IMG/VR virus record: IMGVR_UViG_3300002461_000717
Coordinates: 1 to 37,704 of that record
Strand: one strand, 5' to 3'
Length of the DNA stretch: 37,704 nt
From: a virus
In this document: piece after piece, positions 2,051 through 30,434 of the stretch
Numbering within the stretch: the stretch's first letter is position 1
Layout: every line of letters starts with the position of its first letter
Made by a program: the position numbers and the translations under genes
The notes under the pieces: generated by a model
What the model was told of the DNA's origin: nothing
The model's database searches: none
The model's input: the letters and a program-made list of their open reading frames with translations, nothing else

Positions 2051-2354
2051 TAGACTTTAGGGAATGAATCATTGCTTCATGACCTAATTTTGCCTCTTCA
2101 AGGGTTTCATACCGCATGATTTCTAATTCAAGATGGTCTTCTGCTATGACAGCGGTTTCAAAATAGCCATTAAATCTTAGTCCTTTCTCTGTGTAGATTA
2201 GAGAAGGAATTCCTATCCATACAGTTGAGATGAACTTATCTCCATAGTGTTCTTGTTTCACAATGCGGTATTTGTAATCTTCAAAGAGTTCTCCCCATTG
2301 CTGCACAGTGAGAGGCTTTCCCTCTTTGTCTCTATATATGAAATGACTATTCAT
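2034..2354 (-). CDS. Hypothetical protein (106 aa)
   Basis: ORF track. Its ATG overlaps the stop of the upstream small ORF (ATGA at 2351-2354). Convergent with terL. Confidence 0.6.
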   Translation of the reverse strand: MNSHFIYRDKEGKPLTVQQWGELFEDYKYRIVKQEHYGDKFISTVWIGIPSLIYTEKGLRFNGYFETAVIAEDHLELEIMRYETLEEAKLGHEAMIHSLKSTNACQ

Positions 2355-2521
2355 TTGTTCTTATGAGCTTCTTTCCTGATGATATCTGTCAGGGTTTGAT
2401 TGATCTCTGCAATCTTTTGCAACTCAATCACTAGACGTGCTTGTAGGTAATTCATCCTAAAATGTAAAACCACAATGTGAAGACACATCATGGCAAGCAA
2501 TAGGAAAGAGTGCGTCTTCAT
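2351..2521 (-). CDS. Small hydrophobic protein (56 aa), below the ORF-track cutoff
   Basis: Hand translation MKTHSFLLLAMMCLHIVVLHF...KEAHKNK. ATGA overlaps at both ends (2518-2521 and 2351-2354) indicate translational coupling. The N-terminus is hydrophobic. Confidence 0.45.
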   Translation of the reverse strand: MKTHSFLLLAMMCLHIVVLHFRMNYLQARLVIELQKIAEINQTLTDIIRKEAHKNK

Positions 2522-5571: not shown

Positions 5572-7617
5572 ATGACATTATTTCCTCAACTTTCTGACTC
5601 TTACTATGTTGATAATGACCATAATATCCTAAAACTGATGGACTACACTTATGCCAAATACATCACAATCAATCAATCATTTTGGAGTGAAGCAGACATA
5701 GACAACCGCTTCAAAGCTGGGGATCAAACACTTTGGAATGATATTTATGGGAATTTACCAGCATTTAGGCGCAGGCAATTTAATTTCAACCGCATTAGGC
5801 GTGTTGTTAACATGATTTCTGGATATCAACGCCAGCATAGGAAATCAATTGTAGCTGTACCTGTAGAGGCAAGTCATCAAGAAACATCTGATCAATTCAG
5901 CAAACTTTTAATCCATGCAAATACACGTGGTCAAGTTTTAGAGACAATTTCTGAGGCATTTGAAGGTGCATTAACCACTGGTATGAATATGCTTTCTGTG
6001 TGGATGGATTTCAGAAGAGATCCCGTAAATGGAGAAATTCAGGTAGATAACGTCTCCTATAATGGCTATTTAATTGATCCATATTTCAAGCGTATGGACT
6101 TAACAGATTGCAACTCAATATGGACTAGAAAATATCTAAGCCGCACTCAAGTCCAAGCTCTAATCCCTGATAGGGAAGCTGAAATTAGAGGAATGAGAGG
6201 ATGGGGAAATAGAGATGGCAAATTCCAATTTATGCCAGAATCTTATAATTACGGAATGCAAGATCTGCTAATTTATGATGAATTTTGGTACATGGACACA
6301 CGCAAGCAAAAAATGCTATGTGATCCAGAAACAGGTGAGGTTTATGAATGGAGAGGACAAGATGATGACCTTAATTATTTTAAGCGTTTGTTTCCTAACA
6401 TTGTGGTACTTGACCAGGAAATCCCCACAGTAAAATTAGCAATTGTTGTTCAAGGTAAGGTAATGTATCACGGGCCAAATCCTCTTGGTATTGACCGTTA
6501 TCCATTTGTTCCAGTATGGGCTTATTATGAACCTCAAATCCCTTATTTCCCTTGGAGAGTGCAAGGAGTTGTGCGCGGAATCCGGGATGCGCAATATTTA
6601 TATAACAGGCGCAAAATAATTGAATTAGATATACTAGAATCTCAAATTAATTCAGGTTTTATATATAAAGAGAATGCGTTAGTTAATCCAAAAGATGTAT
6701 TTCTTCAAGGTCAAGGAAGAGGGTTAGCTATCAAGGCAGAAGCTAATATTGCAGATGTTGTTCCTATTCAACCGCCAGGTATTCAACCATCTATGATGCA
6801 ATTGTCTCAGCTATTAGGTGAAGAAATAAGCCAAATATCTGGCGTTAATGAAGAATTGCTAGGCAGTGCAACTGATGATAAAGCGGCTATTTTGGGAATG
6901 TTACGCCAAGGTGCAGGCCTTACCACATTGCAGGTGCTATTTGATAATTTAGACCAATCTTTGAAGCTTCTAGGTAATGTTGAAATGTCATTAATGCAGC
7001 AGAATTGGACACCAGGTAAGGTACGTAGAATCTTAGGACAAGAGCCTTCACAAGAGTTTTATAACCGTGCATTTGGCAAATATGATGCTGTAGTGGAAGA
7101 AGGCTTAAATACATCAACACAAAGACAAATGCAATTTGCGCAACTGCTTCAAATGCGTGAAATTGGCATTGAAATTCCAGCAGAAATGCTAATCAAATCC
7201 TCTACATTGCAGGAGAAAAATGAACTCATTGAAGCCATGCAACAACAGCAGCAACAGCAACAACAATTGGCACAGCAACAACAACAAGTACAAATGCAGG
7301 TGTTGCAGGCCCAAATTGAAGACCTCAAATCTAGAGCAATGGCTAACCAAGGACTTGGCGTTGAAAGGATATCGCGTATTGAGGAGAACAGAGCATTGGC
7401 AGTTGAAAGAATTGCAGAGGCCCAAAAAGACCGCGATATGGGTACATTGGATCGCATTAAAGCGGTTAAAGAACTAACGGACATTGACCTAAATCAAATT
7501 GAAAAGGCCATACAAATCATCCGTACTATTCAAGAAGCTCAGGTGAGAGAAAGTGTTCAATCAGAAGAGAAAGTCAAGCAAGATAGACCTTTGGAACAAG
7601 CGCAAATGCAAGCATAG
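5572..7617 (+). CDS. Portal protein with long C-terminal coiled-coil/poly-Q tail
   Basis: 681 aa, the largest head-module protein, near the terminase. The N-terminal two-thirds looks portal-like by eye. The C-terminal helical Q/E-rich segment resembles the barrel of P22-type portals. Confidence 0.75.
   Translation: MTLFPQLSDSYYVDNDHNILKLMDYTYAKYITINQSFWSEADIDNRFKAGDQTLWNDIYGNLPAFRRRQFNFNRIRRVVNMISGYQRQHRKSIVAVPVEASHQETSDQFSKLLIHANTRGQVLETISEAFEGALTTGMNMLSVWMDFRRDPVNGEIQVDNVSYNGYLIDPYFKRMDLTDCNSIWTRKYLSRTQVQALIPDREAEIRGMRGWGNRDGKFQFMPESYNYGMQDLLIYDEFWYMDTRKQKMLCDPETGEVYEWRGQDDDLNYFKRLFPNIVVLDQEIPTVKLAIVVQGKVMYHGPNPLGIDRYPFVPVWAYYEPQIPYFPWRVQGVVRGIRDAQYLYNRRKIIELDILESQINSGFIYKENALVNPKDVFLQGQGRGLAIKAEANIADVVPIQPPGIQPSMMQLSQLLGEEISQISGVNEELLGSATDDKAAILGMLRQGAGLTTLQVLFDNLDQSLKLLGNVEMSLMQQNWTPGKVRRILGQEPSQEFYNRAFGKYDAVVEEGLNTSTQRQMQFAQLLQMREIGIEIPAEMLIKSSTLQEKNELIEAMQQQQQQQQQLAQQQQQVQMQVLQAQIEDLKSRAMANQGLGVERISRIEENRALAVERIAEAQKDRDMGTLDRIKAVKELTDIDLNQIEKAIQIIRTIQEAQVRESVQSEEKVKQDRPLEQAQMQA
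7240..7287 (+). repeat. CAA/CAG trinucleotide tract encoding Q9-LA-Q5 inside the portal gene
   Basis: Read directly: caacaacagcagcaacagcaacaacaa ttggca cagcaacaacaacaa. Confidence 0.9.
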
Positions 7618-9050: not shown

Positions 9051-9509
9051 ATGTTGAGTTTTGAGAAAGGCCAGAAATTCACTGGTAAAGCAGCGTATGA
9101 TCTTCTGCATAAAGGTATTGAAGCCAATGAAATGCAAGAGGTTCAAGAGACAATTGATGCAATGACTCCCGCTTATATAGCTGAGCTGGAAGATTGCGCA
9201 CAAAAAAATAGCCGTAAGTATGACGGCAAATATTACATTGTTTGTCTCAGAAAAAAAGAGACGTTCTTTGTAAATGTCATAAGACAATGGTTCATAGCCC
9301 GTCAGACTAAGCCTATGCCAGATGTACTATTCAGAGATTATCCCAATTTTGATCATGATATTTGGGAAGTGTCACCTGGGGGAGACACCAAATTACTTTG
9401 GTCTCTCCCCCCTGGACAAGAACAACAAACTATTATGAAAAATCCCAGTCTTTACCATTCTGATCTAGTCAAATGGATCAGGGATTTTCAGAATGGATGC
9501 CTTATTTAG
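9051..9509 (+). CDS. Hypothetical protein (152 aa)
   Basis: ORF track. Its 3' end overlaps the convergent U-box gene by 8 nt. Confidence 0.6.
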   Translation: MLSFEKGQKFTGKAAYDLLHKGIEANEMQEVQETIDAMTPAYIAELEDCAQKNSRKYDGKYYIVCLRKKETFFVNVIRQWFIARQTKPMPDVLFRDYPNFDHDIWEVSPGGDTKLLWSLPPGQEQQTIMKNPSLYHSDLVKWIRDFQNGCLI

Positions 9510-10374
9510 CCACTAATGGATCAACTGATAAAACAGGATCTTCAATCTCTTCAGAAAAGATCTCTGTAACTTCTCTCATCTTACGTGAATATGCTTGAGG
9601 TGTAAGATCCCCGTTATTCAATTGGATAGTCAGATCTGTGCTTACCTGCTTCAAAATTTCAGCAGCCTGAAAGTCCAACCCTTTATAGATTGATTCAAAA
9701 CCTCTGACAATTGCTGGCGTGAATTCAGGGTTTTTCATCTCATTTTTAAGAACATTTGCGTAAGTTTTCTTGACCTTACCTACATATGTTATATCAGTAG
9801 TAAGTTGAGTCTTATTGAATACTCTACGGCAGTCAGGACATTTAGGCCCTCCTTCCGTACGTGCGTTTCTATCATAATATTCTTCAATATACACGCGCTC
9901 AAAAGTATGTCCACACATTGTTTGAACTGGATCTTTGATAATGTCCTTGCTTATAGAACATGTAAGACCTTGAAAAGCAGGAAGATTGTCACGTACTTGA
10001 ACAAATTTATCTATTACAGTTTTACCTTCAATAGAACTTTTCCAGTCTTCATAATCTCTATGAAGAACTACTCCACCAATAATGGCAGTAGTGACTAAAC
10101 CCGCCCCTAAGCCCACTGCTCCTCCAATAAGCATACCTTTAGGGCCAGCAGGCGCACCCAAAAGTGCTCCTCCAATAGTAAGACCGGCAGTGAGTTTGCC
10201 CCCGTCTTTTAATAGCCTTAAGGTTACTTCTTGTGTCTTATCTGCTCTAAAAAACTCAGCTGTGCGGTCTCTTTTTGCTGCAAATGTATCTGTGCGTGTA
10301 TACGCTACAAGTTCTTTGAATTCATCTTGCGGGATAGCATATGTACCCACTGAACTTCGTGCTGCTGATGTCAT
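9502..10374 (-). CDS. U-box/RING-like E3 ubiquitin ligase domain protein with bilobed hydrophobic anchor (track ORF extends to 10395)
   Basis: U-box-like segment LTCSISKDIIKDPVQTMCGHTFERVYIEEYY...KCPDCRRVF. Hydrophobic segment LTAGLTIGGALLGAPAGPKGMLIGGAVGLGAGLVTTAIIGGVVL. The ATG at 10374 has GGAG 7 nt upstream and an ATGA overlap with the upstream ORF. Confidence 0.8.
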   Translation of the reverse strand: MTSAARSSVGTYAIPQDEFKELVAYTRTDTFAAKRDRTAEFFRADKTQEVTLRLLKDGGKLTAGLTIGGALLGAPAGPKGMLIGGAVGLGAGLVTTAIIGGVVLHRDYEDWKSSIEGKTVIDKFVQVRDNLPAFQGLTCSISKDIIKDPVQTMCGHTFERVYIEEYYDRNARTEGGPKCPDCRRVFNKTQLTTDITYVGKVKKTYANVLKNEMKNPEFTPAIVRGFESIYKGLDFQAAEILKQVSTDLTIQLNNGDLTPQAYSRKMREVTEIFSEEIEDPVLSVDPLVAK

Positions 10375-10775
10375 ACTAATACTCCATTGTACCATTTATA
10401 AAATGTAATTGACAATCCTACTGCGGCACAAAATAATACTAATAAGCAACATGATAATGCTACCAATTTTTCTCTATCAATTGTGCAATCTAAACAGCTA
10501 ATTGTTACAAACCTAGATCTAAAAAACTCTGACGTCTTGTCTCTCTCTTTAACTTCACCCCGTTTTACTTTTTCTCTATGATCCTGAATGAAAATATGCA
10601 TTTGTACAAACTGATCAATGCTATCATAGGTTAGAGGAGGACAATTGACGCTGTTATCAGGATTAAGTGTGCAGAATTCGCGGTGCGCAGGGGTATAGAT
10701 GCTATTCTGAGTAGCATCATATCTAAACCCATTTGGGAGATTGTCAATTGTGTATGGAGTTCTAACAGCAGCCAT
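10371..10775 (-). CDS. C-terminally membrane-anchored protein sharing an RD[KR]T[SA]EFFR motif with the U-box protein (track start 10781 is TTG)
   Basis: ERDKTSEFFRS followed about 20 aa later by the TM segment LVALSCCLLVLFCAAVGLSITF. Translationally coupled to the U-box gene. Confidence 0.6.
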   Translation of the reverse strand: MAAVRTPYTIDNLPNGFRYDATQNSIYTPAHREFCTLNPDNSVNCPPLTYDSIDQFVQMHIFIQDHREKVKRGEVKERDKTSEFFRSRFVTISCLDCTIDREKLVALSCCLLVLFCAAVGLSITFYKWYNGVLV

Positions 10776-10800
10776 TACCAAGCATTCTTCACAAAGCCTT

Positions 10801-10828
10801 AATTTACGTCAAACGTCTTAATCTGCAA
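10801..10828 (-). promoter_or_regulatory. Promoter candidate for the U-box operon
   Basis: On the minus strand: TTGCAG (10828-10823), 16 nt spacer, TAAATT (10806-10801). Lies between the terminator at 10862-10897 and the ORF start. Confidence 0.35.
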
Positions 10829-10861
10829 GTTTTTTAGAAGTGTAACTCATAGCACCTAGAC

Positions 10862-10897
10862 AAAAAAAGCGGTGATTTGACCAGGCTGGCTCACCGC
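10862..10897 (-). terminator. Rho-independent terminator (minus strand)
   Basis: The minus strand reads GCGGTGA-15 nt loop-TCACCGC followed by TTTTTTT. Confidence 0.6.
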
Positions 10898-11407
10898 AAA
10901 GCCTTTTCAGAGTGATGCGCGTTTTAAACGCTCACCATACTTTTTCTACACGTGGTAGATAAGCTAAACGTAAGGCGCAAGAGTATAAATCACTGCCAAT
11001 GGAGTGTGCACGTCTGCATATCTCTTACGCCTCCGCATCTGTTTCCACAAAGTGGATCAGTCTCAAAAGCAAAGCCTTCCACCTCCAGATAAACTGGATT
11101 GAATATATAATACATTTTTGTAAAAAAAAGAGAGAGAGGATTCTCTCCCTTAACCATCTCTAATAAGGAGATATGAAAAGACATCTTGAACAGTTCTTAA
11201 TGAGACTAATGAGCCGCCATTGGCACATAGACAAAAGCGCTTAATGGGCTGCTGATACTCACCGCATTTAAAATAGGTCATGTGTGCCTATTCACCCAAC
11301 AGTTCCCCAAAGTTTCTACTTTAACCTCTGACGCATAACGTCAGCATTCAATTCCCCAGGGTAACTGCGCCGGCCAGGAAGTCCCAGCCCATTTTTTTTC
11401 AGCATGC
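10862..11407 (-). ncRNA. Candidate ~545-nt structured non-coding transcript (family unknown)
   Basis: No Shine-Dalgarno-preceded ORF on the minus strand. Bounded by a promoter-like element and the terminator. Multiple hairpins (11328-11344, 11272-11292, 10911-10936) and a 9-bp long-range complement (11243-11251 with 11385-11393). Confidence 0.3.
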
Positions 11408-11413
11408 ATCCAG

Positions 11414-11442
11414 ATTTTACCTCATAGAATCAATACTGGAAA
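11414..11442 (-). promoter_or_regulatory. Promoter candidate for the ORF-free transcript
   Basis: On the minus strand: TTTCCA (11442-11437), 17 nt spacer, TAAAAT (11419-11414). Overlaps the stop of ORF 11430..11675. Confidence 0.3.
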
Positions 11443-11675
11443 TGTATTTTAACCCATTTCTCTATGAAGTCAGTCAAATCTTTATAGGTTTCCAAATTTA
11501 ACTTTTGAGTATCTAAGTAGAAGTCCCTAAGCATTATTTTACATCTTCTAGTGCACCATTCATCATGCGTTTCTTCCTTTTCAGGTTTGACAAATCTTTC
11601 TGTCACATCATCCATTTTAATGTTCCAACTAACAGTTTTCATACGTTCCTCAGGTTTAGCATTTCTCTTAATCAT
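11430..11675 (-). CDS. Hypothetical protein (81 aa)
   Basis: ORF track. First gene of the reverse-strand island, divergent from the scaffold gene. Confidence 0.55.
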   Translation of the reverse strand: MIKRNAKPEERMKTVSWNIKMDDVTERFVKPEKEETHDEWCTRRCKIMLRDFYLDTQKLNLETYKDLTDFIEKWVKIHFQY

Positions 11676-11694
11676 GATCTATTCAAATATCTTT

Positions 11695-11723
11695 TTGACT
11701 TAAAGGAAAGTCTTTTGTATCTT
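11695..11723 (+). promoter_or_regulatory. Promoter candidate for the scaffold/capsid operon
   Basis: TTGACT (11695-11700), 17 nt spacer, TATCTT (11718-11723). Confidence 0.4.
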
Positions 11724-11816
11724 TAAAAATTAAACTTGACAACGTTAGCATGCGTTAATTGCGTCAAATCTGAGACTTAAGGCGTAAAAGAAGCTCGCCA
11801 CTTCAAAAGGAAAAGA

Positions 11817-12512
11817 ATGAACGCAGAAGAAACAGAGAGCGTAGAGGAGCAATCCTCAATGGCTGACGCTCAAGCCACTGAAGCGGGACAGCAGGAACCT
11901 CAGGTTGATGCTGCACAGCATAGAAAAAGAAACAATCTTGAGTACAACTGGGCAGAAGCAAGAAGAGGGCTTGCTGAGAGAGACAAGGAAATTCAGGATC
12001 TTAAAACGCAGTTACAATCCGTTTTGCAACCTCAAACACAAGAACCGCAGCTTAGTGATGATGACCTCTTAACTGCTAGAGATGGCAGAAAAGTAGTCAG
12101 ACAAGAAGCTTCAGAGATTGTGAAAGAAGCACTTAAACAATATGAGGCTTCAACGTTAGAAGAGCGTTTGCTTCAAAAGTACCCTGATTTCAATGACGTA
12201 GTCTCTCCTGACAATATAAATGTATTAAAGGAAACAGAGCCAGAACTCGCAATGTCTATAGCGTATCTGAAGGATGATCCAAAGGCTCAAAGCATTGCAG
12301 CTTATAAGTTACTGAAAAGGTTAGGGATTGGTACGAACAATTCCACACCAGAAAGAGACAAAGCACTTAAAAATGCTCAAAAACCTCTCTCTGTTAATGC
12401 AGTAACAAAATCATCTGCAATTGGTAATGCACACCTCTTTGAGAATGGACTGACTACAGAGTTGAAATCCCAGCTCTGGAAAGAAATGCAGGATTGCATG
12501 AAACGCGCATAA
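11817..12512 (+). CDS. Putative scaffolding protein
   Basis: Acidic, Q/E-rich and probably helical, 231 aa, immediately upstream of the major capsid gene. Positional inference. Confidence 0.55.
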   Translation: MNAEETESVEEQSSMADAQATEAGQQEPQVDAAQHRKRNNLEYNWAEARRGLAERDKEIQDLKTQLQSVLQPQTQEPQLSDDDLLTARDGRKVVRQEASEIVKEALKQYEASTLEERLLQKYPDFNDVVSPDNINVLKETEPELAMSIAYLKDDPKAQSIAAYKLLKRLGIGTNNSTPERDKALKNAQKPLSVNAVTKSSAIGNAHLFENGLTTELKSQLWKEMQDCMKRA

Positions 12513-12550
12513 ACACAAGTGAGTTTTGGCCACCAAATTAGGTGTTGCCA

Positions 12551-13498
12551 ATGTCAATCACTACAACAAGTGTATTGCCAGCCCCAGTGCAACAAAGCTT
12601 TAGCTTCAAGTTGCTCTCTGTGCCTGTGCCATACATGATTCATAAGATCCCTGCGGATCTTAAAGCAATGCCAAGAAATGGTGGTACTACGCTCCGTATG
12701 CGTAGATACAACCCCTTGGCTACAGCCCCTGTTCCCCTTGGGAATAGCGGAATAACTCCTCCACCTCAAACGCTTACTGCTGTCAACATTGACGCGCAGA
12801 TGGACTTCTATGGAACGTATATCCTACTCAATGAGCAGGTTACTCTCCAGAACCAAGATCCTGTGCTTAATGAAGCATCACAAAGATTAGGTGTTAGCCT
12901 CCGTCAAACTGAAGATCAGTTGATGAGAGATATGTTGACCTCCACAAGTGCTTTTATTAACTGCACTAATGGTACCAACGGAGACCTTCCAACTGAAATC
13001 ACACGTCCTGACGTAGATACTGTTGTGAGAACACTACGTGGTAATAATGCGTATAGCTTCTTAACAGGTATTGAAGGAGAAAACCGTTTTGGTACAGCTC
13101 CTGTACGTGATGCTTACTTTGGCTTGGGTCACACTGATCTTATTGGTCAACTAGATAACATCAACGGATTCATCCAGAAATGGAACTATCCAAATCAGCA
13201 ATCTACTCTTGATGCTGAGTGGGGTACTGCGTCTAACGTCAGATTCCTACTCTCTTCTATTGGTAGCATTACACCTAATGCATCTCTACTTGGTGCTAAT
13301 GTGTACAACATCTTTGTCACTGGCCGTGAAGCATTTGCAGCGATTGAACAAGATGGTTACAGCGCTCAATTTATTTATAGACCCCCTATTTATGATGGGC
13401 CATTGGCTCTGAACGCTAGTGTGGGCTACAAGTTTGCTGAAGTGCCTAGAATTACAAATGATACGTGGGTCTTCAACCTACGTTGTACATTGGCATAA
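12551..13498 (+). CDS. Major capsid protein (HK97 fold, resembling the N4-gp56 family; track start 12542 is GTG)
   Basis: Segments MPRNGGTTLRMRRYNPL, LGNSGITPPPQTL, DFYGTYILLNEQV and RQTEDQLMRDML match the usual capsid pattern by eye. AGGTG lies before the ATG at 12551. Confidence 0.85.
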   Translation: MSITTTSVLPAPVQQSFSFKLLSVPVPYMIHKIPADLKAMPRNGGTTLRMRRYNPLATAPVPLGNSGITPPPQTLTAVNIDAQMDFYGTYILLNEQVTLQNQDPVLNEASQRLGVSLRQTEDQLMRDMLTSTSAFINCTNGTNGDLPTEITRPDVDTVVRTLRGNNAYSFLTGIEGENRFGTAPVRDAYFGLGHTDLIGQLDNINGFIQKWNYPNQQSTLDAEWGTASNVRFLLSSIGSITPNASLLGANVYNIFVTGREAFAAIEQDGYSAQFIYRPPIYDGPLALNASVGYKFAEVPRITNDTWVFNLRCTLA

Positions 13499-16535: not shown

Positions 16536-17123
16536 ATGTCTTTTAACAGTAATATTCCTCAGGCTACAGATCTTATAAGTGTAAGTCAGCAAGATTTGCT
16601 CAATAACTTTACGTCAATGCAAAGCACCTATACCACGGACCATTATGGGTTTAATCCTCTCACAAATTTGGGCTATCACAAGCAAATTACTCTTGTAGAT
16701 GATGCTTTGGTAGTAAGATCAACAGCTGCTGGAAGACTCATTGAATACGCGGTTACCACTAACGCTCAAACATATCCCGCACTTCAAAGAGATGGTACCA
16801 CAACCGTTTATCAAGCACTTCCAATCAAAGCCTATGCATTATTTTTAACCAGTAATACTGGTAGTGCACCCGTTTCTTCATTCACTCTTCCCTATGCTAA
16901 TGTATCTGCAATCACACGCACAGGTGTTGGTACATATACTGTGACATTTGTGGATAATTTTCCAAACACGGCTTATGGAATTTTGAGCTCTTTCAATGCA
17001 TTTACTAGCATGATCATAACTGCTACTCCTTTAAGTACTAGCCAAATTCAAATCACTGTTAGGAGTCCCGCTGGAACGTTTAATGATATAAGTACCTTTA
17101 TCATGGTTGCCTGTCTTAATTAG
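16536..17123 (+). CDS. Possible tail tubular protein A-like (195 aa)
   Basis: Size and position ahead of the large tail protein resemble the T7 gp11/gp12 pair. No motif-level support. Confidence 0.4.
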   Translation: MSFNSNIPQATDLISVSQQDLLNNFTSMQSTYTTDHYGFNPLTNLGYHKQITLVDDALVVRSTAAGRLIEYAVTTNAQTYPALQRDGTTTVYQALPIKAYALFLTSNTGSAPVSSFTLPYANVSAITRTGVGTYTVTFVDNFPNTAYGILSSFNAFTSMIITATPLSTSQIQITVRSPAGTFNDISTFIMVACLN

Positions 17124-17130
17124 GAAAACA

Positions 17131-19665
17131 ATGACTGTAAGTTTACTCATCAAAAATCCGCGGAAAGGTCTAGAGAATGACATAGTTCCTGACCTATTGC
17201 CACAGGATGCATTTCCTACTCTTGAAGATGTATTCATGTTTAGAGGACGTGTAAGAAGACGTCGCGGTGCCAAAAGATTAGGACAAATAGTCAGCGGCGT
17301 TGTTGCAGAGGCTGTAGGAAGCGCCAATGGTGCAAACTTTGCAGGCACCTTAGCCCATACTCCTATTCAACCAGGCTCAGTTGTAATCACTGTGGGTGGT
17401 GTTACTTTTACTGATACAGGCAATGGAACATTCATGGGAGTTCCAGCGGGAAACACTGGAACAATCAATTATTTTACAGGAGCTATCTCACTTACGTTCG
17501 TTCCTCCCTTAGGAGGGGCTACGCCAGTAGTGGCCTCCTATTCTTTTTATAATTTCCTCCCAGTCATGGGATTAAGGACAAGAGAGCTAACAACAATCAA
17601 TGAAGAACAGCTCATTGGTTTTGATACTCTTAAAGCTAACGCATTTGTCTCAAGCGCTACTCCACCTCAATTTGTAGATATCTCATTCTATAAGACCACC
17701 AATCTAGCTTTCTCCTGGTCTGGTACTGATGCGCAATTCTTTTGGTCTACCAATTACCAGAACGCTTTCTTTGCTACAAACAACAACCCAGGTTTGCAGG
17801 TATTTGTAGTGACCAACGTTACAGCGGCTGCTAGCGCTGTGATTACCTTTACTGGAGGAGATGTATTTGTAAATGGTGACATCATCACTCTGACAAACGT
17901 TGTAGCAACAGCTGGAAGCACACTGAATGTGAATGGACTTACAGGAACAGTTACAGCGCATGCAGCTGGTACTGTTACCGTTACCATCAATACATCTGCT
18001 GGCTTTACGTATTCAAGTGGTGGATTGATTCATAGTTTAACGCGCACTCAAACAGGTGATGGAATTCGCTGGTATGATGGAACAGGTTGGGTGAATTTTC
18101 AACCGCCATTGAGCGCAACTACTACCGGTACAAATGTAAGTGTTTTGCAGACAGCGCTTATTCTTTTGCCTTACAAAGGTAGATTGCTTGCTCTAAATAC
18201 TCAAGAAGGAACTACCACAGGGCCTTCAACAAATTTTGCTCAAAGGGCACGCTATTCTGAAATTGGTACTGTGTATTATAACGCATTGACACCTCAAGGT
18301 TTTACAGGGGGATTTCAAGCGGATGCATGGAGAGATGACATTGTGGGAAGAGGAGGGTTTATTGATGCTCCTACCAGTGAACAAATTGTCTCAGCAGAAT
18401 TTATTAAAGACACAGTGGTTGTTTTTTTTGAGCGTTCAACTTATCAGCTCCGCTATACAGGGGACCCTACAATCCCCTTTATCTGGGAAAAAATCAATGC
18501 AGAGCTTGGAGCAGAGTCTACATTTAGCATTGTCCCTTTTGATAGGGGCATATATGGGGTAGGAAATTACGGTATTGTCACGTGTGACTCAGTAAATGTA
18601 GCAAGAATAGATCAGATCATTCCAGATGAAGTATTTAAAATTCACAACACTAACAATGGAGTGAGGCGGGTACATGGAATTAGAGACTACACAAAGCAGT
18701 TGGTTTATTGGACATTCCCTAATGATGTTGTCTTCACCAATAACGTCACCACCACCAAGTTTCCCACCCGGGTTCTCATTCTTAATTACCTTGATGGTTC
18801 TTATTCTTTCTTTAATGACTCGCTAACGTGTTTTGGTCAATTCCAAGCATTTAGGGATATCCGTTGGATAGATCTGCCAATACAATGGCAAAATTATCCG
18901 GAAAAATGGAATTCAGGAAGTTTGCAACAAGATTATCCTGTGATAGTTGCGGGCAATCAGCAAGGATATGTCTTCTTTTATAATCAGGATCAATCTGAAT
19001 CTCCTGTAAATGATCCTTCTCTTTCCATATCCGGTGCAACGCAAGCATCACCTGCACAAATCACAGCAGTTAATCACAATTTACAGGATGGTCAATTCAT
19101 CCAAATTACTGGTGTCAATGGCATGACTCAGTTGAATAGCAATGCCTTATCCCCTAATGGAATTTATCAGGTTTTAGCTGTCACGGGTATGAATACCTTC
19201 ACAATTTCTTATTATGATTCAGTATTGAATAACTTTTTCCCAGTAGATTCCACAGCATTTAGTGCCTACACAAATGGTGGAGAAATTGCTGTTCTCAATA
19301 ATTTTAATGTGATTAGCAAGCAATTTAGTCCCTTTGAAGATCAAGTACTTCAGGCGCGTTTGACCTACATGGATATTTTTGTGGATGCAGCAGCTAATGG
19401 GCAATTTAGTGTTAATTTCTATCTAAATCAAGATGATGACACCATTGTCACCACTGATGTCTCAGTTGCGCAAACGAATACGGGACAGCAAAGAATTTGG
19501 TTCAGAACTATCCCTAATGTCACAGCTGAATATATCCAATTCCAAATGACTCTTAGCAATGATCAATTGAATGATCCTCAATTCTTTGATTTTGACTTCA
19601 CGTTGCATGCAGTTATGATGAATTTCCAACCCGCATCTCGCTTCATGTTTGGAGTGCAATTATGA
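17131..19665 (+). CDS. Large tail protein, possibly tubular B/nozzle-like (track start 17107 is TTG)
   Basis: 844 aa from the ATG at 17131, with an AGGAAA Shine-Dalgarno. The N-terminal LLPQDAFPTLEDVFMFRGRVRRRRG resembles podovirus tail tubular B N-termini by eye. Confidence 0.5.
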   Translation: MTVSLLIKNPRKGLENDIVPDLLPQDAFPTLEDVFMFRGRVRRRRGAKRLGQIVSGVVAEAVGSANGANFAGTLAHTPIQPGSVVITVGGVTFTDTGNGTFMGVPAGNTGTINYFTGAISLTFVPPLGGATPVVASYSFYNFLPVMGLRTRELTTINEEQLIGFDTLKANAFVSSATPPQFVDISFYKTTNLAFSWSGTDAQFFWSTNYQNAFFATNNNPGLQVFVVTNVTAAASAVITFTGGDVFVNGDIITLTNVVATAGSTLNVNGLTGTVTAHAAGTVTVTINTSAGFTYSSGGLIHSLTRTQTGDGIRWYDGTGWVNFQPPLSATTTGTNVSVLQTALILLPYKGRLLALNTQEGTTTGPSTNFAQRARYSEIGTVYYNALTPQGFTGGFQADAWRDDIVGRGGFIDAPTSEQIVSAEFIKDTVVVFFERSTYQLRYTGDPTIPFIWEKINAELGAESTFSIVPFDRGIYGVGNYGIVTCDSVNVARIDQIIPDEVFKIHNTNNGVRRVHGIRDYTKQLVYWTFPNDVVFTNNVTTTKFPTRVLILNYLDGSYSFFNDSLTCFGQFQAFRDIRWIDLPIQWQNYPEKWNSGSLQQDYPVIVAGNQQGYVFFYNQDQSESPVNDPSLSISGATQASPAQITAVNHNLQDGQFIQITGVNGMTQLNSNALSPNGIYQVLAVTGMNTFTISYYDSVLNNFFPVDSTAFSAYTNGGEIAVLNNFNVISKQFSPFEDQVLQARLTYMDIFVDAAANGQFSVNFYLNQDDDTIVTTDVSVAQTNTGQQRIWFRTIPNVTAEYIQFQMTLSNDQLNDPQFFDFDFTLHAVMMNFQPASRFMFGVQL

Positions 19666-22153: not shown

Positions 22154-23574
22154 TGCCATATAGAAGAATTGAAGCTCCCGTTGAAGAACAAGAAGAAGAA
22201 CCTGAAAAAAAGGCATTCCGTAGAATAGAAAAGCCTAAAGCAGGTGCTCTTAAACGTACTGCTGTCAATGTACCAAAAGAATTTGCGGCTGAAGCTGTTG
22301 GCCAAATCCCTCAATTAGCAGAATTAGCAACCGCTACCACTCCTTTTGTTGAAGAAAGAGAACAGCAAGCCAGGCATCCATTTCTTCCGGATATAGAATC
22401 TTTAGAAGGCTCTGGAGAAAAAGGATTGAGAAATTTACTCAATATGCTTGGTCAACAAGATTTGGTGCAAAAGCTCACTCCAGAATCATTGCGTGAAAGA
22501 TTCAGAGAAAAGACAGAAGGCGAGTTTGAACCCCAATCTAAGACAGAAAAAGTTTTAGGAAGAGGTGGTGCATTAGGTGGTCAGCTAGCTGGATTAGGCG
22601 GTGGTCTGCGTTCTATTCTAATGGGAGCTCTAGGAGGTCTTGCAGGACAGACAGGAAGAGAGTATGGACTTAATGAACCTTTAGCTACAGCTCTTGAAAT
22701 TGGAACCAGCATAGGAGGAGAAGCAGCTAGACCAGAACTGCTTGCCAAAGCTGGTGAAAAGAAGTTAGTGCAACATGCTAGAAAAGGTGGACTAACTGAA
22801 AAGCAAATTACTCCTCTGTTAAAATCCCCAAAAGCTCAAGAAAAACTAGGTCAACATGCGCTTAAAACTACAGAGCTAAAAAAATCTATCAAAGATATTG
22901 GAAAGAAATTTGATCAAAATTTCTATGAACCTCTCAAAGTAAATGCTAGCAAGCTTCCAAAACTGAATGAAGCTCAAACCGCTGAGTTCTTTGATTCACT
23001 TGTCCCTATTCAGAAAGAACTTGCCCACTCTAAATTACCAACCGTAGATAAGGAATATGCTAAAGATCAACTTGTTAAATTGGCTGAGAAAGTTGCTGAA
23101 GAAGGTCTGTCCCCAAGAGACATCATTGACACGTGGCAAGACATCAACAAAAACATCCAGTGGAAAAAAGCGGGCTCCAAGCCGTATGCCGCAGTCAAAG
23201 ACGCACTTGCGAAAACCTTTGAAAAAGTCAGTCCGGAACTCGCGGAAGACTTCCAGCTAACTAATAAGCTCTACTCTAAATTCAAACCTCTTGAAAGAGC
23301 TTTAGAACCTAAAGGTTTAGATAATATTTTAAATCTTGGTCATGAAGGAGAAGTAGCGGTTGCTCTTGCTTTCCATAATCCATCACTTATTAAGGCTGCA
23401 TTTGGTCACTTAGGAGCAAAATATATTGCAAACCAACTACTTACAAATCCAAGATACCATAACTTTAGTCAGAAGATGCTTAATGCGATCTACAAGCAAG
23501 ATAAGCAAGCTATTTCACGCCTATCCAAACAATTTCAGCAAATGGTTGATAAGGATATGGAAAAACAGAAATGA
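22153..23574 (+). CDS. Putative internal virion protein (473 aa) with glycine-zipper segment
   Basis: TAATG overlap. Contains GGALGGQLAGLGGGLRSILMGALGGLAGQTG. Confidence 0.5.
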   Translation: MPYRRIEAPVEEQEEEPEKKAFRRIEKPKAGALKRTAVNVPKEFAAEAVGQIPQLAELATATTPFVEEREQQARHPFLPDIESLEGSGEKGLRNLLNMLGQQDLVQKLTPESLRERFREKTEGEFEPQSKTEKVLGRGGALGGQLAGLGGGLRSILMGALGGLAGQTGREYGLNEPLATALEIGTSIGGEAARPELLAKAGEKKLVQHARKGGLTEKQITPLLKSPKAQEKLGQHALKTTELKKSIKDIGKKFDQNFYEPLKVNASKLPKLNEAQTAEFFDSLVPIQKELAHSKLPTVDKEYAKDQLVKLAEKVAEEGLSPRDIIDTWQDINKNIQWKKAGSKPYAAVKDALAKTFEKVSPELAEDFQLTNKLYSKFKPLERALEPKGLDNILNLGHEGEVAVALAFHNPSLIKAAFGHLGAKYIANQLLTNPRYHNFSQKMLNAIYKQDKQAISRLSKQFQQMVDKDMEKQK

Positions 23575-23627
23575 TTATCTACAAGCAGCTATAACGGCAA
23601 TAGCGGTAAAAAATAAGAATACAATCA

Positions 23628-23846
23628 TTATTTATTCCTCTCTATTTCTAAAAGTCTGTGATGGAAATCTTTCATTTCATTTTCTATAGCTCTCACTAAA
23701 TTTAAGATGTCTTTCCTATCTTCTTTTGCTTCAGCACGCAATGTATTTGATTCTGTACGTACCCAAAACATCATTGAAATGACTACACCAATCATTGCAA
23801 TTCCAGTTCCTACTACAGCAATGATGATTCCTATGTCTTGTATCAT
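23628..23846 (-). CDS. Small membrane protein (72 aa; holin-like topology is speculative)
   Basis: N-terminal TM segment IGIIIAVVGTGIAMIGVVISMMFWV followed by a charged helix. Confidence 0.55.
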   Translation of the reverse strand: MIQDIGIIIAVVGTGIAMIGVVISMMFWVRTESNTLRAEAKEDRKDILNLVRAIENEMKDFHHRLLEIERNK

Positions 23847-23938
23847 TAACTAACTCCTTTAGATTCAATATTAAGCATCTTCAATATTTTTGCGCTACTA
23901 TAAAAAAATTCATATATATACATGATACAAATATTTTT

Positions 23939-23967
23939 TTGACAAGTTTACCTTTCCGCACTAGCAT
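23939..23967 (+). promoter_or_regulatory. Promoter candidate for the tailspike operon
   Basis: TTGACA (23939-23944), 17 nt spacer, TAGCAT (23962-23967). Confidence 0.4.
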
Positions 23968-23996
23968 AACTTATAAAAATAATTTGAGAGATAACC

Positions 23997-25484
23997 ATGG
24001 CTCCTAAGCAACAAAATGTTACCAATTATAGCACTCCACAAGGCCTTTCCATACCAAACCCAAAAACTATCATAGCTAATAGAAATCCTGCTACAACAGA
24101 CAGAGGGTATCAATTAGGAACTTTGTGGGTAAATAAATCTGCTAGTTCTTCGTATCAACTAGTAAGTGTTAGCGCAGGAAGTGCTACCTGGAGCGCTCTT
24201 GGAGGAGGAGCTACACAAATCTCTACTTTAACTGGAAATAGTGGTGGAGCTATTTCTCCTGTTGCAGGAAATATTAATCTTTCTGGAGGTGCCTTAAACA
24301 CATTTGTTGGTTCAGGAAACACGCTTACACTCACTCCTAAAGCAAGCGCCTATCCTATTACTCCATTTGTAGTAGGACCTGTTGGACAAGCAGGTTATCA
24401 AACTATTCAATCTGCTCTTACTGCTGCCAATGCAGCTGGTGGTGGAATGGTTTATGTTCAACCAGGTACTTATACAGAAAATTTGACTTTCACTGGTAAT
24501 ATCACATTGATAGGTTCATCGGAACAAGATGTGTTTATTATTGGTACTCACGTACCTCCTACAACAGGATTCTTAAATTTATTCCGTTGTACTTTCCAAG
24601 GAGCGGCTGCAATTTTTAGTTCAGCTGCGGCAGGTACAGCAGCAATAATAATGGAAGATTGTTCAGTTAATGTCACAAATGGTTGGGCATTTGATCTACT
24701 AAACTGGGCCTCACCCGGTTCTGTAGCTGTTGATGATATTGGACCATTTGGAACAACAGATGGTTTCTTTAGAAATACTGGTGGTGCTGGATTTTTTGCA
24801 TTTAGCGCTGGGATAGGTAATGGAACCACAAATGCACTAACTGTTTCTGGCTTAACAGTGATTTTTGGTGCAGATATTACGTGCCCACTCACTCTGCAAA
24901 CAGGAGCAATTCTAGCATTTGATAATGGATTCTGCGCTGGTGCAATTACATTTTCCAATAACTCAACAGGAGCTATTAATAACTGTAGATTAACAGGCGG
25001 AGCTAGTGCAGCAGTCACTATGTCTTCTTCAGCAAGTGTTAGTATCCTCAACTCAGTAATAAGTTCCTCAAATAATCCTGCGATTGCTGGAGCTGGAGCT
25101 GGAACGCTTACGCTAGGCGGTAATACTTATCCCCTAAATGCTCTTCATGCTGCAACTCTTACGGTCGCTTATGCTTCAAGAGAAGGTGTTTTAGCTACAA
25201 AAAATACGGCTGGAGCATCCCCACAAATTGTTAACGCTCGTTCAGGTCAAGTAGCATTTACTGATACAATAGCTAACGGCGCTTATGGAACTCTTACATT
25301 GACCAATAGTACGATTTTGGCAACGTCAGTGATTGTAGCTTCAGTTTCATGTACCACTGTTAACTCAGCATGTCAAATTGTAGAAACCACTCCTGGAGCT
25401 GGAAGCGTTGCTTTTAGAATATTTAACGCTGGTGCGGCAACTACAGCGGCAAACATTCTAGTAAATTTCTGGGTTATTAACTAA
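23997..25484 (+). CDS. Tailspike 1, right-handed beta-helix (pectate-lyase-like) type
   Basis: YQTIQSALTAANAAGGGMVYVQPGTYTENLTF is a typical beta-helix N-cap. Also SSNNPAIAGAGAGTLT, and Gly/Ser/Thr/Asn-rich repeats. Confidence 0.75.
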   Translation: MAPKQQNVTNYSTPQGLSIPNPKTIIANRNPATTDRGYQLGTLWVNKSASSSYQLVSVSAGSATWSALGGGATQISTLTGNSGGAISPVAGNINLSGGALNTFVGSGNTLTLTPKASAYPITPFVVGPVGQAGYQTIQSALTAANAAGGGMVYVQPGTYTENLTFTGNITLIGSSEQDVFIIGTHVPPTTGFLNLFRCTFQGAAAIFSSAAAGTAAIIMEDCSVNVTNGWAFDLLNWASPGSVAVDDIGPFGTTDGFFRNTGGAGFFAFSAGIGNGTTNALTVSGLTVIFGADITCPLTLQTGAILAFDNGFCAGAITFSNNSTGAINNCRLTGGASAAVTMSSSASVSILNSVISSSNNPAIAGAGAGTLTLGGNTYPLNALHAATLTVAYASREGVLATKNTAGASPQIVNARSGQVAFTDTIANGAYGTLTLTNSTILATSVIVASVSCTTVNSACQIVETTPGAGSVAFRIFNAGAATTAANILVNFWVIN

Positions 25485-29380: not shown

Positions 29381-29722
29381 CTAGAAAGGCAACTCAAACA
29401 TGTCATCTTGAGTTTCAACAGGTTCTGCCTTCTTAGCCACAAAAGCTTTAGGAGCCATTGGATCATAGATTTTCATAGCAGCAATGATTTGCTTGCTAAA
29501 CTCATCTTGATCCTCTTTGTGCATTTGAATGATGTCTGCATATTTGGTTTCCCCACTCTCATTCTTGTAGGGCCTACTGGGCATATTTACCCAATACTTT
29601 CCACCATTTGCAAAGACGCTACACCCTTTGATTAGCCATTTTTTATCTGAATCATAGATATCCAAATACCCTTTCAGGTTCTTCTTATTCTCTACCTTTC
29701 TGTATTCCACAATCTTGTACAT
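29381..29722 (-). CDS. SpoVG-like protein, paralogue 1 (track start 29743)
   Basis: LKGYLDIY...IKGCSVFANGGKYWVNMPSRPYK parallels the SpoVG pattern (...IRVIDGNNGLFVAMPSKR...). AAGGA lies 5 nt before the ATG at 29722. Confidence 0.55.
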   Translation of the reverse strand: MYKIVEYRKVENKKNLKGYLDIYDSDKKWLIKGCSVFANGGKYWVNMPSRPYKNESGETKYADIIQMHKEDQDEFSKQIIAAMKIYDPMAPKAFVAKKAEPVETQDDMFELPF

Positions 29723-29770
29723 AAACATCCTTTTAGTCTTCATGACTTAAAGAAATATTTATGACTTTTT

Positions 29771-30070
29771 CTAGGCTTTTGTCAACTCAATTTTTAAAAA
29801 CTTATCTGCTTCTTGGATGATACTTTGGATCATCTCATCATGAATCTCTTTGTTAGAGAAAGAAATATGTGGATACCACACCATTTCTTTTGTCTCTGCA
29901 TCTAGGGTTTTGCGTCCTGGCATTTGATAAAACCACCCACCTTTAGCGCCTTTGTGTACTGCAATGCCACGGATATCCAGATCCAAATCTACAAGATAGA
30001 CATGGAGGGTTCCTTTGATCTTATTTTTTTTGTCTGTGTTTTTGTAAAATCCAACTATCTCTACTTTCAT
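29771..30070 (-). CDS. SpoVG-like protein, paralogue 2
   Basis: IKGTLHVYLVDLDLDIRGIAVHKGAKGGWFYQMPGRK shows the same pattern. Confidence 0.55.
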   Translation of the reverse strand: MKVEIVGFYKNTDKKNKIKGTLHVYLVDLDLDIRGIAVHKGAKGGWFYQMPGRKTLDAETKEMVWYPHISFSNKEIHDEMIQSIIQEADKFLKIELTKA

Positions 30071-30149
30071 ATGGTTCCTATTTTTTAAATGCCCCTAGGA
30101 CTGTATTAGAGGCTCAGTGTTAAACGATCTTTTGTAAGGATAGGTAACC

Positions 30150-30434
30150 CTATATCTCCATCTGTATTTTTGCTTCTTGGCAAGATTCTAAAGTTTCGCA
30201 ATATGTAATCATTTCTCCTTTTTCATCATCAGAGATATGTTCACAAAAAAAGTTTAAAAAATTATCTAATGATGATTTTAGAAAATATCCCTCAAAGCGT
30301 ACTCCATGGTCAAATGAAAGGGAAAATTTAAATATTTTGGGTTCAATATCAATAATTTTATAACAAATAAATTTTTCCATATTAAAAGCATAGGTATGAT
30401 TTGTGCCCATGCAAAGAAAATCTAAGTATTTCAT
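30150..30434 (-). CDS. Hypothetical protein (94 aa)
   Basis: ORF track. ATGA-type overlap with the upstream replication gene. Confidence 0.55.
   Translation of the reverse strand: MKYLDFLCMGTNHTYAFNMEKFICYKIIDIEPKIFKFSLSFDHGVRFEGYFLKSSLDNFLNFFCEHISDDEKGEMITYCETLESCQEAKIQMEI

Follow-up and report, generated by a model that had tools for sequence, protein, structure and literature searches.

An RNA locus in the minus-strand cassette

The stretch analysed here, called the window throughout, comprises the 37,704 nt at positions 1 to 37,704 of the IMG/VR virus record IMGVR_UViG_3300002461_000717. It is a phage genome of about 38 kb with genes for a terminase (764-2050), a P22-type portal (5572-7617), a major head protein (12542-13498), RecT and RusA. 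A minus-strand cassette (9502-11675) separates the portal-side genes, which are on the plus strand, from the head genes; it contains a small gene (11642-11430), a stretch free of open reading frames (ORFs; 11429-10782), a gene for a protein of 136 amino acids (aa) and a gene for a U-box/RING-like protein. An earlier note, made from the letters of the sequence, had picked out the ORF-free stretch as the longest one without a credible gene and as a candidate large structured noncoding RNA, to which it could assign no family. The stretch 10782-11429 is indeed the longest ORF-free gap of the window and holds no credible gene, and all features that the note listed were found where it had placed them. 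The minus strand of 10862-11442 is a noncoding RNA locus under selection as RNA, and it very probably contains a diverged homologue of the DUF3800-VIII RNA (Rfam family RF03075), a motif described without function by Weinberg et al. 2017 (PMC5737381). From 5' to 3', the locus and the gene in front of it are composed as follows.

11430-11642, minus strand: upstream small gene, 70 aa counted from Met12 of an 81-aa ORF; its last codons hold the -35 element of P_A
11414-11442, minus strand: promoter-like element P_A, with the -35 TTTCCA (11442-11437), a 17-nt spacer and the -10 TAAAAT (11419-11414)
11392-11400 and 11372-11389, minus strand: A8 run and hairpin P1 (GGCUGG/CUGGCC), a block that is invariant in seven relatives
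11301-11365, minus strand: very probable DUF3800-VIII motif (RF03075, from Rfam), with the outer stem CCCU.../...GGGG and the internal loop GAA / ...AGUA
11241-11303, minus strand: 63-nt insertion, window lineage only
11202-11240, minus strand: block 2 with hairpin M3, GCGC-UUUUGUCUAUGUGCC-AAUGG-CGGCUCAUUAGUC
11122-11151, minus strand: terminator T1, a 10-bp G+C-containing stem followed by U8
11066-11114, minus strand: start of unit B and M5, with an AT-rich, extended -10-like element TGTATTAT (11114-11107) and two hairpins (11098-11066)
11066-11098, minus strand: the M5 hairpins UCCAG/CUGGA (11098-11084) and AAGG/CUUU (11078-11066), which flank the purine-rich GGAGGUGGAAGG (11086-11075)
10963-11064, minus strand: module M6, GAGACUGA-UCCAC/GUGGA-AACAGAUGCG, a long-range stem GGAGGCGUAAGAGAUA/UAUACUCUUGCGCCUU of 15-16 bp, and ACGUUUAGC (from RNAalifold and the minimum free energy fold)
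10912-10959, minus strand: module M7, UCUAC/GUAGA (10959-10945) and GGUGAGCGUUU/AAACGC..UCAC (10936-10912)
10862-10897, minus strand: terminator T2, GCGGUGA-G-CCA-GCC-UGG-UCAAA-UCACCGC followed by U7

Selection as RNA is seen in the relatives of the locus, which were gathered via the flanking proteins and are given here by L numbers. The RNA blocks are 89-97% identical to those of L003 and L009, compared with 68-84% for the gene at the scaffold position, the small gene and the gene for a 152-aa protein. Each helix examined keeps its pairing through substitutions; pairing in T2, for example, is complete (100%) across six sequences, versus 21-46% in slid controls, and four of its pairs have changed on both sides. 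Many stem pairs are G-U, where the opposite strand would have A.C mismatches, and the invariant U-G and G-U pairs therefore identify the minus strand as the RNA strand. The minus strand folds at -174 kcal/mol (z = -3.2) versus -138 kcal/mol (z = -2.6) for the plus strand, and the 3' half alone reaches z = -3.5 relative to shuffled sequences. Thus, conservation, covariation of the stems among the homologues and strand-specific G-U pairs all support the proposal of a structured minus-strand noncoding RNA that is bounded by a promoter and intrinsic terminators. The excess of G+C noted earlier is real (43.3% versus a window mean of 39.4%, standard deviation 3.0), but modest, with 10.5% of all 540-nt windows being equally high.

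The promoter-like element TTTCCA-17-TAAAAT (11442-11414) is found in all relatives, with a TAnAAT/TATAAA-like -10 at exactly 17 nt from TTTCCA and a spacer of variable sequence. The reading as a promoter is supported by this fixed distance, because it is kept in spite of the drift of the spacer, and the start site would lie near 11407. The small protein ends in the conserved codons HFQY* (11430-11442, minus strand), which overlap the -35 hexamer, and one sequence is therefore under a double constraint. P1 keeps its pairing through changes from U-G to U-A (L003), from G-C to G-U (L008) and from G-C to A-U together with G-U to G-C (L015); in L019 a U-G is replaced by C.A. The hairpin is missing in L024 and L160, so it is dispensable, and in L024 the -10 sits 10 nt before the motif, a spacing as in bacteria.

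The hairpins seen earlier are real: CTGACG/CGTCAG (11328-11344) is the inner stem-loop CUGACGU-UAU-GCGUCAG of the motif, AATAGG/CCTATT (11272-11292) lies in the insertion, and the bulged stem at 10912-10936 belongs to M7. The 63-nt insertion lengthens the basal stem of the motif (CAGUU/AACUG) and brings the AAUAGG/CCUAUU hairpin and a 9-nt complement to P1; it is absent in L001, L003, L008, L009, L013, L019 and L024 and was found nowhere else among the sequences compared. Therefore, neither this hairpin nor the 9-bp complement is a conserved feature. The long-range complement (11243-11251 with 11385-11393) is present as noted earlier, but it depends on an insertion of one lineage, and it does not tie the whole structure together. 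It creates an alternative pairing with P1. Within the insertion, TGCGGTGAG...CAGCAGCC resembles the T2 5' arm TGCGGTGAGCCAGCC, so that the insertion may be a partial duplication.

Block 2 with M3 is 89-97% identical in L003, L009 and L013 and also occurs directly past the motif in L024, L160 and, remotely, L016. The weaker hairpin with T8 of the earlier note (11151-11122) is T1, and its GCGGTGA...TCACCGC hairpin with T7 (10897-10862) is T2; both have the form of Rho-independent terminators, in which a stem containing G+C leads into a U-run on the transcribed strand. A terminator scanner overlooked T2 solely because its loop has 15 nt. At the position of T1 a terminator is kept in the window, L001, L003, L008, L009 and L013 while the sequence diverges, and L024 has a terminator-like long stem with T6 there. 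The first M5 hairpin keeps its stem across the relatives (UCCAAAA/UUUUGGA in L013), with a loop that varies from 5 to 40 nt. In M7, compensatory changes from C-G to G-C occurred in L003 and L024 (UCUAC/GUAGA to UGUAC/GUACA) and from A-U to C-G in the GGUGA/UCAC helix of L024; the second hairpin is deleted in L009.

M6 is 95% identical in L003 and 89% identical in L009, and it is also found in L013, upstream of T1, in L160 and, with a short hairpin in place of the long stem, alone in L200. These last copies (L200, 5490-5560; L160, 60-130, minus strand; L013, 4725-4800) have the pattern GAGACUGA-UCCAC/GUGGA-AACAGAUGCG followed by a variable stem and ACGUU. M6 recurs in other, unrelated phage backbones, once without DUF3800-VIII, and may be a separate, undescribed phage RNA motif. 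A superficial similarity of its CUGAU...GAAAC to a hammerhead was rejected, the GA/G core residues being missing by eye and no Rfam ribozyme matching.

The locus is modular. Units A and B adjoin in the window, L001, L003, L009, L013 and L024; L019 and L015 have unit A only, L015 with an extra domain inside the motif; in L200 M6 follows the portal and small genes; and in L010 and L011 the RNA locus is wholly absent. As a convergent gene directly adjoins the locus in L009 and L013, the locus is not a leader of a downstream gene.

The DUF3800-VIII motif in phages and bacteria

At the Rfam gathering cut-off, no match was obtained in the whole window. In a relaxed scan, RF03075 was the top match by both score and E-value, located at 11301-11365 on the minus strand with 31.0 bits at a cut-off of 40.2 (E = 0.0027 for the region and 0.078 for the whole window). 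Syntenic copies in L008 (33.7 bits), L003 (33.0) and L019 (36.4) score higher and that of L024 passes (41.9), as does the copy of L160 (51.8), a different phage with the same block 2 and M6 past the motif.

The RF03075 structure consists of a 16-bp outer helix, an internal loop of 3 nt on one side and roughly 8 nt on the other, a 9-bp inner helix and a 3-nt loop. In 51 diverse sequences, 89% of the cells were paired versus 36-46% in slid controls, and 15 of the 25 pairs changed on both sides. On eight family members found by synteny only, 81% were paired (slid controls 27-51%) and six pairs changed on both sides; the inner-stem pairs 23-37 and 24-36 switch among U-A, C-G, G-C and U-G and between G-C and U-A, respectively. 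It should be noted that the diverse canonical sequences were retrieved with a pattern shaped to the window, so they are not independent for a model of their own, and that conserved positions are imposed by the search pattern in the sequences retrieved with it; the Rfam model is independent, and nothing of the kind applies to its consensus or to the relatives found by synteny.

All conserved nucleotides are present at 11301-11365, i.e. the CCCU...GGGG base, the GAA + GUAG internal loop and the CG...CG apex, and the apical 17 nt CUGACGUUAUGCGUCAG are identical to those of many bacterial members. The -10 of the window ends 52 nt upstream of the hairpin because P1 is inserted between them, the canonical spacing being 5-15 nt. 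Relatives that lack the 63-nt insert have GCGC and U4-5 after the motif. As the window copy scores below the threshold while its syntenic and modular relatives score higher and covary, it is treated as a diverged homologue and not as a member at the Rfam threshold. With this qualification, the identification of a diverged DUF3800-VIII homologue in the noncoding locus is made with high confidence, and a family can thus be assigned after all.

The relaxed pattern, fitting both the Rfam consensus and the window copy, was found at 56 loci in GTDB genomes of many phyla and at least 120 loci in IMG/VR. A check of 16 sampled loci with Rfam gave 52-80 bits for 15 of them, and L095 fell below the cut-off. 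At 37 of the 56 GTDB loci a gene for a DUF3800 protein (about 280 aa; PF12686) lies on the opposite strand and converges on the motif; most of its stop codons are within about 20 nt of the motif 3' end, some of the called ORFs extend into the motif, and three are fragments at a distance of 224-446 nt. Sigma-70 promoters (at least 9 of 12 positions) occur within 50 nt upstream of the motif at 26 of 55 loci, versus 1 of 55 at a control position. At canonical loci, 5-15 nt separate the end of the -10 from CCCU, and the hairpin is directly followed by a U-run. Examples of canonical loci are those of Mucilaginibacter endophyticus (NZ_QPCG01000004.1; L025) and Desertivirga xinjiangensis (L063). The promoter, the U-run and the convergent gene together indicate that the canonical element is a self-contained small RNA (sRNA) gene of about 75 nt, and, as it converges on and at times overlaps the DUF3800 3' end, the two transcripts probably overlap. 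One Lentisphaerae metagenome-assembled genome (MAG; L026) has two copies 2 kb apart (307-370 and 2351-2414, minus strand) and no DUF3800-like ORF within 3 kb.

The DUF3800 partner matches PDC-M04A of PADLOC (E = 6.6e-22). DUF3800, an RNase-H-fold domain, turns up repeatedly in settings of defence: it occurs in type VII retrons (PMC7736814), is linked to Cas12a2 (PMC10910872) and is the domain of Csx32 in Cas13-associated CASK loci (bioRxiv 10.64898/2026.08.25.746378). Eleven RNA motifs are associated with DUF3800, and there has been no functional hypothesis since 2017 (PMC5737381).

Phages often carry the RNA alone. No DUF3800 was found among the 39 ORFs of the window (Pfam) or in its six frames, and none in 119 viral motif loci (1.02 Mb) among the IMG/VR matches listed. 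Some of these loci score 72-80 bits, so that orphans exist within the RF03075 family itself. The absence of the partner gene recurs in three settings: the window family, L160 and a main viral group in which the neighbours are ordinary phage genes such as that of a GH25 endolysin. The latter (L081-L199, mostly from sample 3300045988) consists of viral contigs of 30-60 kb with a high G+C content and includes the best-scoring copies (72-80 bits), which lie between an A-run and a U-run at a distance of about 1.4 kb from the endolysin gene, with no DUF3800 in the DNA examined; it is called the gut-phage group on the grounds that its motif type matches that of a Faecalibacterium MAG (L033).

Predicted transcripts and rival explanations

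The order of the signals suggests two transcripts. The sigma-70 RNA polymerase of the host would start at the promoter, which overlaps the small gene's stop codon, and make RNA A of about 290 nt (about 11407 to 11120), which would contain P1, the DUF3800-VIII domain, the 63-nt insert and M3 and end at T1. RNA B, about 255 nt long if it starts just past T1, would contain M5, M6 and M7, end at T2, and be made by read-through of T1 or from the extended -10 just past it. We consider this two-transcript architecture, including the predicted ends, to be reasonably probable. Both RNAs would act in trans as structured protein-binding RNAs, and RNA A might mimic the DUF3800-associated sRNA of the host and thereby titrate or mis-regulate a host DUF3800 nuclease system during infection, an RNA-based counter-defence analogous to the Racr RNAs and pseudo-ToxI. 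Taken as a whole, the reading as a noncoding locus of tandem trans-acting sRNAs, one possibly an RNA mimic directed at host DUF3800 systems, seems to us evenly poised between right and wrong. The decoy function itself, suggested by analogy, is a tentative proposal. Somewhat unlikely, and put forward as a speculation, is the wider idea that several phage lineages use the orphan sRNA as an anti-defence factor, either a mimic that serves as antitoxin or decoy or an RNA that silences the host DUF3800 mRNA by antisense pairing at its 3' end, and that in this family it has been fused to M3, M5, M6 and M7, possibly aimed at other host factors; if this were true, the locus would be an 'RNA anti-defence island'.

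Several observations weigh against the reading as sRNAs with a DUF3800 mimic. The window copy remains below the Rfam gathering cut-off of 40.2 bits, its outer helix has two A.A mismatches, and no U-run directly follows it, unlike in canonical members; unit A, the 5' half, alone folds no better than shuffled sequence (z = -1.0). The viral orphans come mostly from one sample and one phage group, so that 119 overstates the number of independent events, and the gut-phage motif, with its A-run before and U-run after, resembles a plain bidirectional terminator. Literature searches found no function for the DUF3800-associated RNAs and no experiment that ties the DUF3800-VIII RNA to the DUF3800 protein, and PDC-M04 is listed in PADLOC as a candidate defence system only. 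In addition, a decoy would leave the modules M3-M7 unexplained, and M6 occurs without the motif in L200.

The earlier note had in mind one large ornate RNA, and phage-borne GOLLD and ROOL are a precedent for this (PMC5737381). A single RNA of about 545 nt and of a new class, with T1 as an internal structural hairpin or attenuator, would be in line with the adjacency of units A and B in the window, L001, L003, L009, L013 and L024 and with the folding of the whole region (z = -3.2). Nevertheless, it is unlikely. T1 has a 10-bp G+C-containing stem with U8, and a terminator is kept at this place while the sequence drifts; unit A occurs alone in L019 and L015, M6 alone in L200 and inside unit A in L013; and no conserved pairing between the units was found, the sole long-range pairing being lineage-specific. 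No Rfam large-RNA family matches either: a comparison with GOLLD, ROOL, HEARO, raiA, tmRNA and group I/II introns gave nothing at the gathering cut-off in the window, nothing up to E = 10 in 10600-11900 and nothing up to E = 1 window-wide, and a tRNA/tmRNA search of the window was empty. Thus, a structured RNA stands, but its reading as one ornate RNA of the GOLLD/ROOL type is improbable in view of the kept internal terminator and the separable modules.

About equally unlikely is a purely cis-acting role, in which the elements would be terminators, possibly bidirectional, stabilisers of a 3' untranslated region or insulators that keep the minus-strand small gene apart from the convergent head genes on the plus strand. 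A U-run comes after canonical DUF3800-VIII hairpins, and often an A-run before them, as in a bidirectional terminator; in L009 and L013 convergent genes enclose the locus; and both T1 and T2 are good terminators. However, about 500 nt are conserved above the level of the neighbouring genes, and the kept unpaired GAA/GUA loop, the AAUGG loop, GGAGGUGGAAGG and AACAGAUGCG, together with a dedicated promoter, exceed what termination would need; moreover, the relatives L010 and L011 do without the locus.

An immunity-type phage antisense RNA, like P1/P7 c4, P4 CI or P22 sar, that acts by base pairing with phage genes is improbable. The RNAs would be suitably small and bounded by promoter and terminators, and they lie beside a small gene in the late-gene region; the window and the near-identical L001 have different, fully compensated inner stems in the motif, a difference that recalls specificity determinants. 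However, complementarity to the remaining window nowhere exceeds 12 nt, i.e. chance level, which argues against an antisense role within the phage. In addition, domain scans of the window ORFs found no repressor, antirepressor or integrase gene nearby, and neither c4 nor any other phage antisense family of Rfam matches.

That the region represents a degraded or very small gene is highly improbable. The candidates are an ORF of 64 codons, with a part of 41 codons, at 10990-11184 (minus strand), a mini-ORF of 23 codons at 11173-11244 (plus strand), and a decayed DUF3800 gene, since this is exactly where bacteria have their convergent DUF3800 gene with respect to the motif. The 64-codon ORF has a stop at codon 7 in L001, a contig that is 96-97% identical, and indels of +2, +18 and +1 in L003 that break the frame; the mini-ORF has a stop at codon 10 in L009. 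Both were rejected as genes on these grounds. Of the three substitutions that L001 has in the remaining 41 codons, two look synonymous, which might favour a gene, but both fall in the conserved hairpin AAGG/CUUU, one in the loop and the other changing G-U to G-C. The 64-aa product has no match in Pfam or PHROGs. Searches with the DUF3800 hidden Markov model (HMM) and tblastn in every reading frame of the window and the family loci found nothing; the best HMM E-value on the window was 0.84, and the best tblastn matches (E 0.026 to about 2) all lie within other genes of the family loci. A decayed plus-strand DUF3800 gene beneath the ORF-poor region was thereby rejected, and a degraded gene, which the earlier note had asked about, did not come to light.

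A DNA-level element (replication origin, pac site or protein-binding array) would fit a conserved, hairpin-dense region but can practically be dismissed, as the stems rely on G-U pairs that are A.C mismatches on the other strand, compensatory changes keep pairing and not sequence, 10600-11700 is free of tandem repeats and iterons, and the GC skew has no shift centred on the region.

Neighbouring genes and likeness to known systems

Contigs identical to the window come from a metagenome of activated carbon (water filter). The region and the head-gene block had no blastn match among 50,697 GenBank phages; the portal protein is only about 25% identical to portals of podophages (Pseudomonas, Burkholderia and Ralstonia phages), and the portal search did not identify the host. 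A 231-aa ORF (11817-12512) lies at the expected position of the scaffold gene and found no match in family searches. A search with the exact block 1 pattern yielded one close relative only in IMG/VR, none in GTDB genomes and, in JGI metagenomes, one real match and one chance match in coding sequence (L014).

The small upstream protein matches no family in Pfam, PADLOC or NCBIfam, and its single weak match in PHROGs is phrog_8382 (function unknown; E = 0.0063); its AlphaFold model is a two-helix hairpin with a pLDDT (predicted local distance difference test) of 76, which is uninformative as to function. Its gene mostly accompanies the RNA locus, but there are exceptions: L011 and L020-L022 have homologues and no RNA, and in L020-L022 the homologue, of 58 aa, lies among early genes of a different phage and has no RNA locus beside it.

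Downstream of the locus, a promoter-like TTGACG-17-AAGAAT (10784-10812, minus strand) immediately past T2 could drive the genes for the 136-aa protein (10371-10781) and the U-box protein (9502-10395, minus strand) independently of the RNA locus. The latter protein, of 297 aa, has a U-box/RING-type domain (matches to zf-Nse, U-box and zf-C3HC4), i.e. a eukaryote-like E3-ligase fold in a phage, and, by reading of its sequence, a glycine-rich hydrophobic segment that probably spans the membrane. It may be a hint of a host that lives inside eukaryotic cells. Both genes are absent in L003, L009 and L013, which gives them a moron-like appearance, and L003 has an unrelated 117-aa ORF in place of the 136-aa gene. 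Elsewhere in the window, an 852-aa protein of the plus-strand late-gene block (17107-19665) matches the FCCH domain of ubiquitin E1 with 37 bits, above the cut-off, as do its counterparts in the relatives. Two adjoining small minus-strand genes (29381-29743 and 29771-30070) each have a sub-threshold SpoVG-like match (E = 2.4e-5). The stretches 23501-24000 and 30001-30500 are low in G+C (30.6% and 28.8%, versus the mean of 39.4%), and the first overlaps a gap of about 420 nt (23575-23996) without an ORF of at least 90 aa, into which only two short ORFs (72 and 87 aa) reach.

The element at 11301-11365 is thus a variant of a known, functionally unsolved RNA family that has been extended by new modules and is an orphan in the phage. 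The results include the view of the VIII motif in bacteria as a promoter-driven sRNA convergent on a nuclease gene, the frequent presence of the RNA alone in phages, the building of the motif into a larger conserved RNA locus by one phage family, and new RNA modules with covariation support. This raises a testable question, namely whether sRNAs control the nuclease and phages exploit such control, and the locus is of moderate to high interest because the relation between DUF3800 and its RNAs becomes experimentally approachable.

Among the known systems, type III toxin-antitoxin pairs, in which ToxI-like tandem repeats, each about 34-36 nt long, precede an endoribonuclease gene, have no counterpart here, as there are no repeats in 10600-11700 and none of the neighbouring proteins matches a toxin of PADLOC or Pfam; a retron noncoding RNA is not indicated either, no reverse-transcriptase domain being present in the 39 ORFs scanned. 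Type I toxin-antitoxin pairs have convergent RNAs that overlap at their 3' ends, as in txpA/RatA, and the bacterial DUF3800-VIII sRNA likewise converges on the DUF3800 3' end (about 20 nt, sometimes overlapping); however, the DUF3800 protein has about 280 aa and a nuclease fold and is not a small membrane peptide, and the phage copy is without a partner. Small RNAs derived from 3' ends by promoters inside genes form a known class, of which the typical Hfq-dependent 3'-UTR sRNAs are comparatively short and little structured. The window RNA resembles them in that its -35 falls within the final codons of the upstream gene and that it would begin just past the stop codon, but it is much longer and much more structured than they are, and no pairing with a target was found within the window. 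With GOLLD, ROOL and HEARO it shares the location on phages or mobile elements and a high degree of structure, and it differs from them in lacking an Rfam match, in its internal terminator and in modules that occur separately.

The Racr RNA anti-CRISPRs (PMC10651486) and the pseudo-ToxI of phage phiTE (PMC3475682) are cases in which a phage carries the orphan RNA half of a defence or toxin system, and these RNAs were shown to bind their Cas or ToxN partners. The window RNA would resemble them in its mode, a likeness that we infer here; it differs in having no repeats and in that its bacterial counterpart system is uncharacterised. The closest comparison is with the DUF3800-VIII RNA itself (PMC5737381). 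The window copy differs from it in its score (31 versus 40.2 bits), in having no adjoining DUF3800 gene and no direct U-run, in the presence of P1 between promoter and motif, and in more than 150 nt of further conserved modules before the terminator; nevertheless, the two have in common the two-helix hairpin with its CCCU/GGGG base, the GAA / ...GUA loop, the CG-loop-CG apex, the apical 17 nt and a sigma-70-type promoter of their own.

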